Part shown: one piece after another, positions 1,206 to 4,059 of the stretch
Layout of the letters: the number at the start of each line of letters is the position of its first letter
Position numbering within the stretch: the stretch's first letter is position 1
Source of the DNA: a virus
Lineage: Duplodnaviria > Heunggongvirae > Uroviricota > Caudoviricetes
IMG/VR virus record: IMGVR_UViG_2681813315_000026
Length of the DNA stretch: 4,059 nt
Direction: 5' to 3' (one strand)
Program-made: the position numbers and the translations under genes
The notes under the pieces: generated by a model
What the model was told of the DNA's origin: nothing
The model's database searches: none
What the model saw: only the letters and a program-made list of their open reading frames with translations

Positions 1206-1401
1206 TTCTGATCCTCTTCAAAAGGCTACCTGTTACTGGTCGATTTAAGTCAACCTTTACCGCTGATTCGTGGAACAGATACTCTCTTCCATCCTTAACC
1301 GGAGGAGGGAATATCCTGCATTCGCGCACCCATCGACGAACTGTTTCAAGGCTTCTTGGGCGTCGCTGGCGTGCGTTCCACTCCTGAAGTGTCAAGTACA
1401 T
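1183..1401 (-). CDS. xis: Excisionase (lambda Xis)
   Basis: 72-aa ORF MYLTLQEWNARQRRPRSLETVRRWVRECRIFPPPVKDGREYLFHESAVKV..., recognised as lambda Xis. Overlaps the int start by 23 nt as in lambda. Confidence 0.95.
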   Translation of the reverse strand: MYLTLQEWNARQRRPRSLETVRRWVRECRIFPPPVKDGREYLFHESAVKVDLNRPVTGSLLKRIRNGKKAKS

Positions 1402-1430
1402 CGCAAAGTCTCCGCAATTACACGCAAGAA
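1385..1430 (-). promoter_or_regulatory. pI promoter region with cII-binding TTGC-N6-TTGC repeat
   Basis: On the minus strand, TTGCGTGTAATTGCGGAGACTTTGCG ATG(xis): direct TTGC repeats spaced by 6 nt (plus coordinates 1414-1427) with a third TTGC at 1403-1406. This is the layout of cII-activated promoters, positioned so that transcripts start at or within the 5' end of xis and express int. Exact -10 and start site not determined. Confidence 0.65.
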
Positions 1431-1449
1431 AAAGCCGCCATCAGGCGGC
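1425..1449 (-). terminator. Candidate intrinsic terminator at the end of the 55-aa ORF
   Basis: Minus-strand GCCGCC-TGAT-GGCGGC (6-bp all-GC stem, 4-nt loop) immediately followed by TTTTTCTTG. The stop codon of the 55-aa ORF lies in the loop. The U-tract overlaps the cII site of pI. Confidence 0.5.
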
Positions 1450-1646: not shown

Positions 1647-1678
1647 CAGATAAAAGAAATCCTCGTCAGTGCGAGGAT
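1647..1678 (-). terminator. Weak candidate hairpin plus U-rich tract at the left edge of the AT-rich island
   Basis: Minus-strand ATCCTCG-CACTGA-CGAGGAT (7-bp stem, plus 1659-1678) followed by TTCTTTTATCTG. Could stop leftward transcription before it enters orf55/xis/int. Sequence-only call. Confidence 0.3.
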
Positions 1679-1825
1679 GCTGTTCATTGCTGCTATACAC
1701 TTTTTTGCTCTCAACGTAAGCGGTAGCTCATTCTGTTGGGTTGGTGCAGTTGCTTTTAGGAAATGCTATTTACCCCTTAAACGTCGGCTGAAAGAGCTAA
1801 AATCCATGCAAAAAATTTACGCAAT

Positions 1826-1838
1826 TTTGTGTATTATT
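1826..1838 (+). promoter_or_regulatory. Candidate extended -10 promoter element for the island ORF
   Basis: TGgTATTAT at 1829-1837 (TGn + TATTAT) in an AT-rich stretch upstream of the 200-aa ORF. A second TGcTATTTA lies at 1764-1772. No convincing -35 for either. Speculative. Confidence 0.25.
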
Positions 1839-1850
1839 GTGCAGTAAGTA

Positions 1851-2453
1851 ATGAGCTATTTTCTGCGCAAAAAATGGATGGTAAATTTGTCCGGGGCAGG
1901 AAAAATTTTATGGGCGCTAAACATGAAAAAAGATTCGTATCCTTATTTGATTTGCATGACAGTTTCAGGCCTGATCTTTATTTTCTTTTTCTTCTGGTGG
2001 CGGGCAGATATTTACAGGGTCACGTTTCTTAATCAGAGTATATCCCACTATTACATTCTGTTTAGCATGGGAATAGCTTTTCTGTTATCTCTGTTTTGGG
2101 TTAAGAAGGGGATAGTAAAACAAAGCGGCTGGAAGAGTCTGTCAGCATACCTTAAGGTTTATGCAGGGATGTGCATATTTGCTGGATTTTTTCTGATTAT
2201 ACCCCTTACAACACTAACTTATTTTTTGCCTGGAGAGACATCGTCTTATGTTGCACCGTATCGGTATACTTCCGGTAGTTCAAAAAGTTGTTCTGGAGCT
2301 GAGGTGGATGACCCCGATCTACATGAGAATATTCGCATTTGCTATCCGTATGGCAATTATGAGTACGATAATATTATCTATGTTGAAAAGAAAATTAATA
2401 CATTAGGTGCGGTAGTAACATATGCACAGACCGCGCGTGATGATACTGAATGA
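1851..2453 (+). CDS. Predicted integral membrane protein of unknown function (moron-type accessory gene), three TM helices plus a roughly 75-aa C-terminal domain
   Basis: 200-aa ORF on the strand opposite to every other gene here. Three long hydrophobic segments (YPYLICMTVSGLIFIFFFFWW; ISHYYILFSMGIAFLLSLFWV; VYAGMCIFAGFFLIIPLTTLTYFL) with basic residues in the presumed cytoplasmic loops (MKKDS, KKGIVKQSGWK). The C-terminal domain is acidic and Tyr-rich with two Cys. Local base composition is visibly AT-rich compared with int and exo. The start is uncertain: in-frame ATGs at 1851, 1878 and 1923, none with a strong SD; M at 1923 (MKKDSYPYL...) would give 176 aa. Confidence 0.6.
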   Translation: MSYFLRKKWMVNLSGAGKILWALNMKKDSYPYLICMTVSGLIFIFFFFWWRADIYRVTFLNQSISHYYILFSMGIAFLLSLFWVKKGIVKQSGWKSLSAYLKVYAGMCIFAGFFLIIPLTTLTYFLPGETSSYVAPYRYTSGSSKSCSGAEVDDPDLHENIRICYPYGNYEYDNIIYVEKKINTLGAVVTYAQTARDDTE

Positions 2454-2663: not shown

Positions 2664-2885
2664 TCACTTCGAACCTCTCTGTTTACTGATAAGTTCCAGA
2701 TCCTCCTGGCAACTTGCACAAGTCCGACAACCCTGAACGGCCAGGCGTCTTCGCTCATCTATGGGATCGCCACACTCACAACAATGAGTGGCAGATATAG
2801 CCTGGTGGTTCAGGCGGCGTATTTTTATTGCTGTGTTGCGCTGTAATTCTTCAATTTCTGATGCTGAATCAATGATGTCTGCCAT
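2664..2885 (-). CDS. TraR/DksA-family C4 zinc-finger protein (phage TraR-like, orf73-type)
   Basis: 73-aa ORF with the C-x2-C-x17-C-x2-C motif (CCECGDPIDERRRLAVQGCRTCASC). It aligns by eye with plasmid F TraR (CEACGNPIPEARRKIFPGVTLCVEC). Size and position match the TraR-like small protein reported for the exo-xis region of lambdoid phages. Confidence 0.85.
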   Translation of the reverse strand: MADIIDSASEIEELQRNTAIKIRRLNHQAISATHCCECGDPIDERRRLAVQGCRTCASCQEDLELISKQRGSK

Positions 2886-2937
2886 CTTCCATTAATCCCT
2901 GAATTGTTGGTTAATACGCTTGAGGGTGAATGCGAAC

Positions 2938-2962
2938 AATAAAAAAGGAGCCTGTAGCTCCC
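2938..2962 (-). terminator. Weak candidate intrinsic terminator between the 71-93 aa ORF and the TraR-like gene
   Basis: Minus-strand GGAGC-TACAG-GCTCC followed by TTTTTTATT. The stem is only 5 bp, so it is marginal. Confidence 0.3.
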
Positions 2963-2983
2963 TGATGATTTTGCTTTTCATGC

Positions 2984-3265
2984 TCACCGTTCCTTAAAGA
3001 CGCCGTTTAACATGCCGATCGCCAGGCTTAAATGAGTCGGTGTGAATCCCATCAGCGTTACCGTTTCGCGGTGCTTCTTCAGTACGCTACGGCAAATGTC
3101 ATCGACGTTTTTATCCGGAAACTGCTGTCTGGCTTTTTTGATTTCAGAATTAGCCTGACGGGCAATACTGCGAAGGGCGTTTTCTTGCTGAGGTGTCATT
3201 GAACAAGTCCCATGTCGGCAAGCATAAGCACACAGAATATGAAGCCCGCTGCCAGAAAAATGCAT
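2984..3265 (-). CDS. Hypothetical small protein in the exo-xis region (orf61 position), 93 aa from the first ATG or 71 aa from ATG at 3199
   Basis: ORF in the supplied track. The first ATG (3265) is 10 nt downstream of the orf63 stop and has no SD. The internal ATG at 3199 (MTPQQENALRSIARQ...) has GGGA 8 nt upstream. No motif recognised. It does not fit the lambda orf61 geometry as I recall it (61 aa overlapping orf63 by 20 nt): that frame gives only 9 codons here. Confidence 0.5.
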   Translation of the reverse strand: MHFSGSGLHILCAYACRHGTCSMTPQQENALRSIARQANSEIKKARQQFPDKNVDDICRSVLKKHRETVTLMGFTPTHLSLAIGMLNGVFKER

Positions 3266-3275
3266 TCAGTGGTTG

Positions 3276-3467
3276 TCATACCAGGTCTCTCTCATCTGCT
3301 TCTGCTTTCGCCACCATCATTTCCAGCTTTTGCGAAAGGGATGTGGCTAACGTATGAAATTCTTCGTCTGTTTCTACTGGTATTGGCACAAACCTGACTC
3401 CAATTTGAGCAAGGCTATGTGCCATCTCAATACTCGTTCTTAACTCAACAGGAGATGCTTTGTGCAT
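3276..3467 (-). CDS. orf63: Lambda Orf63-like small protein
   Basis: 63-aa ORF with a strong SD (GGGAGG 4-5 nt before the ATG). It overlaps the next gene by 28 nt. Size, overlap and position next to orf60a/exo match lambda orf63. Sequence identity not verified. Confidence 0.75.
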   Translation of the reverse strand: MHKASPVELRTSIEMAHSLAQIGVRFVPIPVETDEEFHTLATSLSQKLEMMVAKAEADERDLV

Positions 3468-3618
3468 ATCGCCTCCCGTTTATTATTTATCTCCTCAGCC
3501 AGCCGCTGGGCTTTCAGTGGATTTTGGATAACAGAAAGGCCGGGAAATACCCAGCCTCGCTTTGTAACGGAGTAGACGAAAGTGATCGCACCTACCCGGA
3601 TATTATCGTGAGGATGCG

Positions 3619-3622
<4 letters not shown>
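3440..3622 (-). CDS. orf60a: Lambda Orf60a-like small protein
   Basis: The ORF track starts at 3628 (MAMTHPHD..., 62 aa). Starting at the second Met (3622) gives 60 aa, with the ATG overlapping the exo stop as ATGA, which is the lambda arrangement. Confidence 0.7.

Positions 3623-4059
<437 letters not shown>

Follow-up and report, generated by a model that had tools for sequence, protein, structure and literature searches.

Where does translation of the island gene begin? The window analysed here, a stretch of 4,059 nucleotides from the virus record IMGVR_UViG_2681813315_000026, carries a 200-aa open reading frame for a membrane protein, and four public records place the start of this gene at four different codons. 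RefSeq (PGAP) begins it at ATG 1851 (WP_000120054.1, 200 aa), the phage 2B8 record at ATG 1874, with a fragment in addition, the curated CPT record of the phage 434 genome at TTG 1887, and the 1990 phage 434 entry M60848 at ATG 1910, under the name 'ORF-22+'. The initial annotation of this DNA had also found the start ambiguous and offered four explanations, namely a homopolymer sequencing or assembly error, slippage-based phase variation, a leaderless or weak Shine-Dalgarno (SD) start, and a genuine small overlapping ORF. The comparative analysis presented here resolves the ambiguity in favor of ATG 1923, because diverged homologues share its methionine, the frame upstream of it is closed, and the segment 1851-1922 behaves like non-coding DNA. 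It is thus the weak-SD option that the conserved methionine and the closed upstream frame support, and we consider it very probable that the real start is ATG 1923, used with a weak SD within a prophage cargo cassette that would hold its own promoter and leader.

The island gene and its candidate starts

The window is the left arm of a lambdoid prophage, comprising attP, int (135-1205), xis (1183-1401), orf55 (1441-1608), a TraR/DksA-type zinc-finger gene (the TraR-like orf73, 2664-2885), orf61/63/60a-like genes and the 3′ part of exo, with int, xis, orf55 and the TraR-like gene all on the minus strand. Between them lies a plus-strand island (about 1620-2660) that is 99.7% identical to phage 434 and 99.8% identical to phage 2B8, and is carried by about 905-914 of 5426 complete E. 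coli genomes. In the prophage of the window, this cassette sits between orf55 and orf73 and replaces ea22/ea8.5 of lambda, which we take to hold the corresponding exo-xis position there. Full-length matches were found in five of 214 matching phage records (434, 2B8, mEp332), and in the remaining records the match is confined to the initial 85-89 bases of the query. In lambda, ea22 and ea8.5 occupy the corresponding position in the exo-xis region (PMC8614690).

It had been claimed that none of the in-frame ATGs of the 200-aa ORF (1851, 1878 and 1923) has a good SD, and both the coordinates and the anti-SD duplex energies agree with this. ATG 1851 and ATG 1878 have about 0 kcal/mol, and ATG 1923 reaches -2.4 kcal/mol through a weak SD-like element, TGGGC (1911-1915, plus strand), that lies 7-8 nt before it; as a reference, the accepted genes in the window range from -4.9 to -10.3 kcal/mol. 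The AGGA at 1898-1901, followed after 8 nt by ATG 1910 in the frame of the overlapping 1829-2032 ORF, and the A6 run at 1926-1931 are likewise present as claimed. A fifth candidate, absent from the earlier list, is the in-frame TTG 1887, which has GGAUGG upstream and -6.8 kcal/mol, but a spacing of only 3 nt. ATG 1910, by its side, has -7.1 kcal/mol (GGGGCAGGA) at a spacing of 8 nt. This codon lies 13 nt upstream of ATG 1923, and with -7.1 against -2.4 kcal/mol it would, from thermodynamics alone, be expected to initiate more often than 1923.

How unusual such an arrangement is can be judged within the window itself. A value of -7.1 kcal/mol is reached by 6 of its 169 ATGs (3.6%) and one of -5 by 15%, and A6 or T6 runs occur 11 times in the window and six times in the 841-nt island. 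The pattern of a SD plus an A6 run is therefore mildly unusual and exceeds chance only weakly.

Conservation of the start and evolution of the segment upstream

The protein search yielded 73 relatives, with a core alignment of 16 sequences, and the DNA comparison covered about 90 loci from one-genome-per-species and viral collections. Homologues at 78, 70, 62-53 and 49-42% identity are 169-180 aa long, and the diverged ones come from six enterobacterial genera (represented by E. coli, Salmonella, Citrobacter, Enterobacter, Klebsiella and Cedecea). For relatives below about 80% identity, alignments begin exactly at the methionine encoded by ATG 1923 (MKKDSYPYL), which is invariant in the 16-sequence core alignment, down to 42% identity. 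A few relatives are annotated with longer N-termini, and these are unrelated to each other and to the 24 residues of the window. Upstream of the methionine, the frame is closed by in-frame stops in many lineages, with TAA TGA at -15/-12 in the 78% E. coli group, a stop at -21 in the 70% Salmonella group and another at -6 in Klebsiella sp. R390, and of 22 distinct upstream haplotypes, 13 lack any in-frame start codon ahead of the methionine. Furthermore, ordinary SDs precede the equivalent methionine at normal spacing in distant homologues, CAAGGAGGC (AAGGAGG type, -11.4 kcal/mol) in Klebsiella and CAAGGAA (-5.4 kcal/mol) in Enterobacter. The true coding sequence would accordingly span 1923-2453 on the plus strand and encode 176 aa, and PGAP itself calls ATG 1923 (WP_000711110.1, 176 aa) in the SFE8 haplotype, where the upstream frame is broken.

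The 24 codons that RefSeq adds in front (1851-1922, plus strand) show a different mode of evolution from the gene. Among 71 loci of at least 94% identity, this segment has 11.1 variable sites per 100 nt, distributed 5/2/1 over codon positions 1/2/3, which resembles the upstream non-coding DNA (11.3 per 100 nt; 6/5/6), whereas the coding sequence from 1923 has 5.5 per 100 nt, distributed 6/7/16. No third-position bias was seen in 1851-1922 across these close loci. Two SNPs, G1876A (creating TAG) and G1899T (creating TGA), introduce stops into the 1851 frame, and both belong to the SFE8 haplotype, whose marker G1937A is present in 83 complete genomes. Frame-breaking deletions that leave the coding sequence intact have also been found, one shortening G4 to G3 at 1893-1896 (L031; protein clusters P0026/P0027, 73 contigs) and the other shortening A6 to A5 at 1869-1874 (clusters P0022/P0023, and L095). 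Judged by this pattern of variation, 1851-1922 is not coding, and it would instead hold the predicted promoter and the 5′ leader.

These data bear directly on the view that RefSeq is right and that the gene starts at ATG 1851 (200 aa), or else at ATG 1878 or TTG 1887, with a lineage-specific N-terminal extension. In the window, as in most close relatives, the frame does run open from 1851, and two annotations begin within it, that of PGAP at 1851 and that of the CPT 434 record at TTG 1887. However, neither 1851 nor 1878 has an SD, the supposed extension contains stops and frame-breaking indels in relatives, evolves like non-coding DNA and encloses a conserved promoter-like site, and no diverged homologue possesses it, leaving this view very unlikely. 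The starts given in RefSeq (ATG 1851), in the CPT 434 record (TTG 1887) and in the old 434 entry for 'ORF-22+' (ATG 1910) are thus probably wrong, as probably is that of the phage 2B8 record (ATG 1874), and WP_000120054.1 probably carries 24 surplus residues at its N-terminus. Many of the roughly 900 complete E. coli genomes with the gene are annotated with close variants of this 200-aa model, and the value of the present result lies mainly in correcting this annotation, the feature itself being ordinary and indicating no new mechanism. Expression or deletion work on the gene should use ATG 1923.

The A6 tract

The initial annotation had pointed to the A6 run (1926-1931, plus strand) next to the SD-preceded ATG 1910 and suspected either an error in the window or a tract for phase variation. 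Relative to ATG 1923, the run is simply codons 2-3, Lys-Lys (AAA AAA). Tract length was compared, as the initial annotation had proposed, across the 914 complete E. coli genomes carrying the gene with synthetic A5 and A7 queries and a 51-nt A6 query. Exact A5 was found in none of these 914 genomes and exact A7 in none either, while exact A6 was found in 828 with the 51-nt query and in a further 83 with the G1937A SNP. Hence at least 911 of 914 carry A6, with at most three unaccounted for. The four non-exact records listed span 51 nt and therefore carry substitutions. A6 is also present in all 65 close IMG/VR loci of the haplotype table and in 70 of the 71 close loci fetched. One genome, NZ_CP027550.1, differs in length by 1 nt and was considered as a variant of the tract, but the extra base is really a T, inserted into the T6 run at 2222-2227.

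An A5 sequence was met in a single 1197-nt Logan contig (locus L095), whose fused protein forms the cluster P0032 (MGAKHEKDSYPY). This contig has two indels relative to the window and no others, both of them A6 to A5, at 1869-1874 and at 1926-1931. That both indels fall in A6 runs suggests homopolymer miscalling, that is, a read error, and A5 was rejected as a real allele on this ground. The contig nevertheless illustrates what had been claimed, that a one-base change in the run would fuse ATG 1910 to the membrane-protein frame. A5 does produce such a fusion, giving the P0032 protein; on the other hand the peptide quoted for it, MGAKHEKKDSY, needs A8, a gain of two bases.

In diverged homologues the run itself is broken, reading AAG AAA in the 78% group, AAG AAT in the 70% group, and AGA AAA, AAA ACG or AAA AAT in others, though Lys-Lys (or Lys-Asn) is retained. 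The conserved thing is therefore the protein sequence and not the homopolymer. On this comparative evidence we regard the A6 run as two lysine codons, and as neither a phase-variation tract nor an error in the window: a sequencing or assembly error finds no support, A6 being the universal allele, nor does slippage, given the lack of length polymorphism together with the failure of the tract to be conserved as a homopolymer. Homologues keep the 1923 frame with an invariant start and the tract does not vary in length among the genomes compared, which is in essence the outcome that the initial annotation itself had named as speaking against its reading.

The likeness to the contingency loci of Haemophilus, Neisseria and Campylobacter is confined to position, in that a homopolymer stands right after the start codon and a 1-nt deletion alters which start feeds the ORF. 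Six bases are short for a contingency tract. Unlike such loci, the tract here is only 6 nt long, shows no length polymorphism in over 900 genomes and is broken by synonymous changes in relatives, and the ORF has its own ATG in the normal state.

A related proposal invokes slippage at the A tract to link ATG 1910 with the membrane-protein frame, whether of the DNA (A6 to A5) or of the ribosome (+1 at AAA-AGA of the 1910 frame, with AGA in the A site), giving in both cases MGAKHEKDSYPY. A5 gives exactly such a fusion and one public contig encodes it, and the codons in the 1910 frame, GAA AAA AGA, are such that tRNA-Lys can re-pair perfectly one base forward. AGA is a rare arginine codon in E. 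coli. The genome survey, with no exact A5 or A7 and at least 911 A6, nevertheless leaves this proposal scarcely credible, as does the fact that the A5 contig is also shortened at the other A6 run. In addition, neither the 78% group (GAA GAA AGA in the 1910 frame) nor the 70% group has an unbroken tract, and a fusion is unneeded because a conserved ATG already opens the downstream frame. Programmed frameshifting fits no better, for the invariant Met 1923 of the downstream frame forms the N-terminus in every diverged homologue, and the slippery AAA-AGA is not conserved, being GAA-AGA in the 78% group, with the upstream ATG lost in the 70% group.

Initiation, the ATG 1910 frame and the cargo cassette

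The AGGA-ATG 1910 pair opens an out-of-frame ORF of 40 codons (1910-2032, plus strand), the SD-preceded part of the 67-aa ORF at 1829-2032. Could it be a genuine small gene, read as 67 aa from GTG 1829 or as 40 aa from ATG 1910? The ORF is open, ATG 1910 has its SD, the stop position is the same in the 78% group, and parts of the ORF are annotated in two database records. Comparison shows, however, that the alternative frame evolves without coding selection: against the 78% group its pN/pS is about 1.1, compared with 0.18 in the main frame, and synonymous divergence in the main frame is hardly lower inside the overlap (pS 0.54) than outside it (0.61), so that the main-frame synonymous rate is not depressed. 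Moreover, in the 70% group the ATG at the 1910 position is TTG and the alternative frame has an internal stop, the 1829-1909 part is broken by indels in relatives, and no family match was found for the ATG 1910 ORF. We regard a small gene here as extremely improbable, and this option of the initial annotation found no support.

More subtle is the reading as a regulatory upstream ORF, which is compatible with a start at 1923. Ribosomes led by the AGGA would start at 1910, cross ATG 1923 out of frame and stop at 2032, thereby throttling or modulating the membrane protein, with the peptide itself being irrelevant. ATG 1910 has the best SD of the region, and both the 98% and the 78% group retain an ATG at -13 and an ORF of 40 codons. 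In addition, each of the three phage-borne groups (98%, 78% and 70%) shows a purine-rich block with ATG or TTG about 8 nt further on, at -13, so an upstream start could have some role. The AGGA (1898-1901, plus strand), which gives -7.1 kcal/mol in the window allele, is nonetheless weakened to -4.3 kcal/mol in the commonest E. coli allele (T1896), replaced by AGGG in the 78% group and destroyed (ATGA) in the SFE8 haplotype with its 83 genomes. The ATG, besides being TTG in the 70% group, is absent from all chromosomal homologues, and two natural IS10 insertions remove everything upstream of 1915 and leave the gene intact. Also, the conserved TGGG at -12 to -9, the best-conserved leader element across groups, can be read either as part of the -13 start codon or as the weak SD of ATG 1923. 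Overall a regulatory role of this kind appears unlikely. A more elaborate version, in which the -13 SD-led start (an ATG in the phages of E. coli and a TTG in the P2-like Salmonella copy) is kept as a decoy or upstream ORF for low, tunable translation of a potentially toxic membrane protein, with AAA-AGA perhaps adding a +1 shift, is a little more doubtful still. The SD-preceded, out-of-frame ATG 13 nt upstream, overlapping the true start, does recall overlapping upstream ORFs and leader peptides; unlike these, it has a start and SD that are conserved only among close relatives, a peptide without conservation, and no attenuator or arrest motif that could be recognised. The AGGA-ATG 1910 pair is best viewed as a lineage-specific, unselected upstream ORF that would at most divert some ribosomes.

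Initiation at ATG 1923 would then proceed with the weak SD TGGG, an A/U-rich unstructured leader and AAA AAA as codons 2-3. A canonical SD 5-10 nt before the codon is missing, with -2.4 kcal/mol in the window and -1.9 to -4.7 kcal/mol in the other phage-borne groups; among the homologues, those of Klebsiella and Enterobacter alone have one. Compared with its shuffles, the predicted leader has less structure (fold z-score +1.4; 191 of 200 shuffles fold at least as well), which would suit weak-SD initiation, and Rfam gave nothing in the leader. The arrangement resembles non-canonical initiation in E. coli, where unstructured A/U-rich leaders work with a weak SD or independently of one, in its weak SD of -2.4 kcal/mol, low-structure leader, A/U-rich tract upstream and AAA after the ATG; it differs in that distant homologues of the gene use ordinary strong SDs, and the mechanism is proposed here from sequence only.

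The cassette most likely has its own promoter inside 1851-1922. The predicted elements are a -35 hexamer TTTTCT (1859-1864, plus strand), invariant in 8 of 8 aligned sequences, and, after 17 nt, an extended -10 TGgTAAATT (1879-1887, plus strand), which occupies the same alignment column in three groups. TTTTCT-17 nt-TGnTAAATT is the sole promoter-like site found at one column in the 98%, 78% and 70% groups (8 sequences), and in the 5′ alignment of these groups the TG and TAAATTT are invariant, with variable bases adjacent to them. The site came from a relaxed, alignment-anchored scan and is predicted from consensus and conservation; a standard promoter scan listed no site upstream of the gene, because the -35 of the conserved site matches consensus at only three of six positions. 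A promoter built on TATTAT at 1832-1837 was also considered and rejected, if not strictly, since it lacks a -35 and a scoring site is not conserved there in every group. From the extended -10, transcription would be predicted to start near 1894, and an mRNA of this kind would lack ATG 1851, ATG 1874, ATG 1878 and TTG 1887, with only ATG 1910 and ATG 1923 remaining on it. Further upstream, homology of the lambdoid (98%, 78%) and P2-like (70%) copies starts at about 1795, defining a conserved non-coding module (1795-1858, plus strand) with TTGTGCA-like direct repeats (TTGT-N6-TTGT) at about 1815-1845. The CPT 434 record marks TTGY-N6-TTGY in this module as a CII consensus match, and the module is possibly an operator.

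An intrinsic terminator with a 9-bp stem, a 6-nt loop and a T-rich tail was found by a terminator scan at 2488-2521 on the plus strand, its extent also being given as 2488-2511, closing a unit of promoter-like site, gene and own terminator. The GC content of the island is 38%, against 44-48% in the flanks (int 0.45; 2664-4059 0.48), and low GC and an own terminator give the cassette the anatomy of a moron, as far as sequence features tell. The region under discussion would thus comprise the predicted promoter, 5′ leader and true start of a self-contained cargo cassette. Like morons recognised in HK97/lambda comparisons, the cassette is opposite in orientation to the surrounding early-left operon, differs from it in GC content, and is predicted to have a terminator of its own along with a conserved promoter-like site. 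The module is patchy among related phages and present in different phage backbones (434, 2B8, many prophages and a P2-like site), the 70% Salmonella homologue residing with the same upstream module in a P2-like prophage, in the cargo site between the portal gene and replication gene A (gpA). Unlike in those cases, the class is assigned here by sequence anatomy, and the product has no known family. The Enterobacter homologue at 42% identity is chromosomal, downstream of a LysR-type regulator gene.

What the gene product does can be approached through its predicted structure. Searches of Pfam, NCBIfam and PADLOC returned no family, PHROG 1416 matches and is annotated without function, a Foldseek search against the PDB gave nothing significant (best E 0.07), and a literature search on the protein accessions and on phage 434 ORF55/xis found no paper treating the gene. 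A confident AlphaFold2 model built from the 16-sequence alignment (pLDDT 85, pTM 0.70) places helices at residues 5-29, 38-61 and 70-101, followed by a beta domain that forms the C-terminal part (105-171). The sequence begins with MKK, is rich in lysine in loop 2 and ends in an acidic domain in which two cysteines are invariant. From hydropathy and the charge distribution we infer a topology in which the N-terminus would lie in the cytoplasm, three transmembrane helices would cross the membrane, and the acidic two-cysteine beta domain would face the periplasm. Given the homologue in the P2-like cargo site, the protein could by analogy be a candidate for superinfection exclusion or defence.

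Insertions and frame-disrupting changes at the 176-aa gene

In two prophage contigs from IMG/VR (L015 and L018), an IS10-type end lies 8 nt upstream of ATG 1923, the favoured start of the 176-aa membrane protein. Both junctions correspond to window 1914/1915, with L015:212-235 reading ...GGGGATCTCTCAG up to the junction and CGCTAAACATG beyond it, and L018:84-107 reading ...GGGGATTCATCAG followed by the same CGCTAAACATG, and the two IS10-type ends are in opposite orientations. Through insertion both contigs have lost the predicted native promoter, the AGGA motif (1898-1901) and the out-of-frame ATG 1910, and the 176-aa ORF stays intact. The insertion end of L018 is 100% identical to sequence of plasmids R100, R27 and pHCM1, which are carriers of Tn10, and the insertion target CGCTAAACA is similar to the IS10 hotspot GCTNAGC.

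Within the coding sequence, the homologous locus L096 (NZ_CP027550.1) carries a T insertion in a T6 run (window 2222-2227) and is labelled "frameshifted" by PGAP, the RefSeq annotation pipeline, and a second homologous locus, L076, has a 5-nt deletion (CTGAT) at window 1971-1975. Such inactivating changes stem from pseudogenisation or else from errors of assembly. They demonstrate that the 176-aa gene does acquire homopolymer indels, but at sites other than the A6 run (1926-1931).

Repeats and a short ORF upstream of the gene

Upstream of the predicted promoter, window 1815-1845 holds TTGTGCA-like direct repeats spaced by 10-11 nt (TTGT-N6-TTGT), which are kept in three to four copies in both the E. 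coli (78%) and the Salmonella (70%) groups of homologues. The curated CPT record of phage 434 marks this region as a match to the CII-binding consensus, and the repeats may serve as an operator for some regulator. A 26-nt imperfect direct repeat, its copies 73% identical and 59 nt apart, is found at window 1791-1816 (AAAGAGCTAAAATCCATGCAAAAAAT) and 1850-1875 (AATGAGCTATTTTCTGCGCAAAAAAT), of which the second copy covers ATG 1851 and the predicted -35 element (1859-1864). The same CPT record lists a plus-strand 56-aa ORF (window 1677-1847), overlapping the t-L4 terminator region, as a "putative membrane protein". Close relatives carry frame-breaking single-base deletions in it, at 1728 in one locus (L061) and at 1746 in three others (L031, L073 and L074), and it is probably not a gene.

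Relation to phage 434 and homologues elsewhere

Phage 434 has ORF114 between xis and ORF55, and the window is without it (window 1401-1441 versus L001:1342-1822); by this difference, the window is a prophage related to phage 434 rather than that phage. For strain PA20, the annotation marks the neighbouring int as frameshifted.

In P2-like prophages of Salmonella, the 70% homologue lies at a cargo site of variable content that is flanked by the portal gene and gpA (L100:4284-5531 and L101:4495-5703), and a gene of the YafO toxin family adjoins it in one of these prophages. Because this position is known as one that harbours anti-phage systems, the 176-aa protein family is a candidate for exclusion or defence. 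A copy of the gene from the E. coli prophage, encoding a protein 98% identical, was also found on a 3.5-kb contig (L005, JARKOR010000073.1) binned as "MAG: Candidatus Nanosynbacter sp.", and this contig is almost certainly a binning contaminant of that metagenome-assembled genome.
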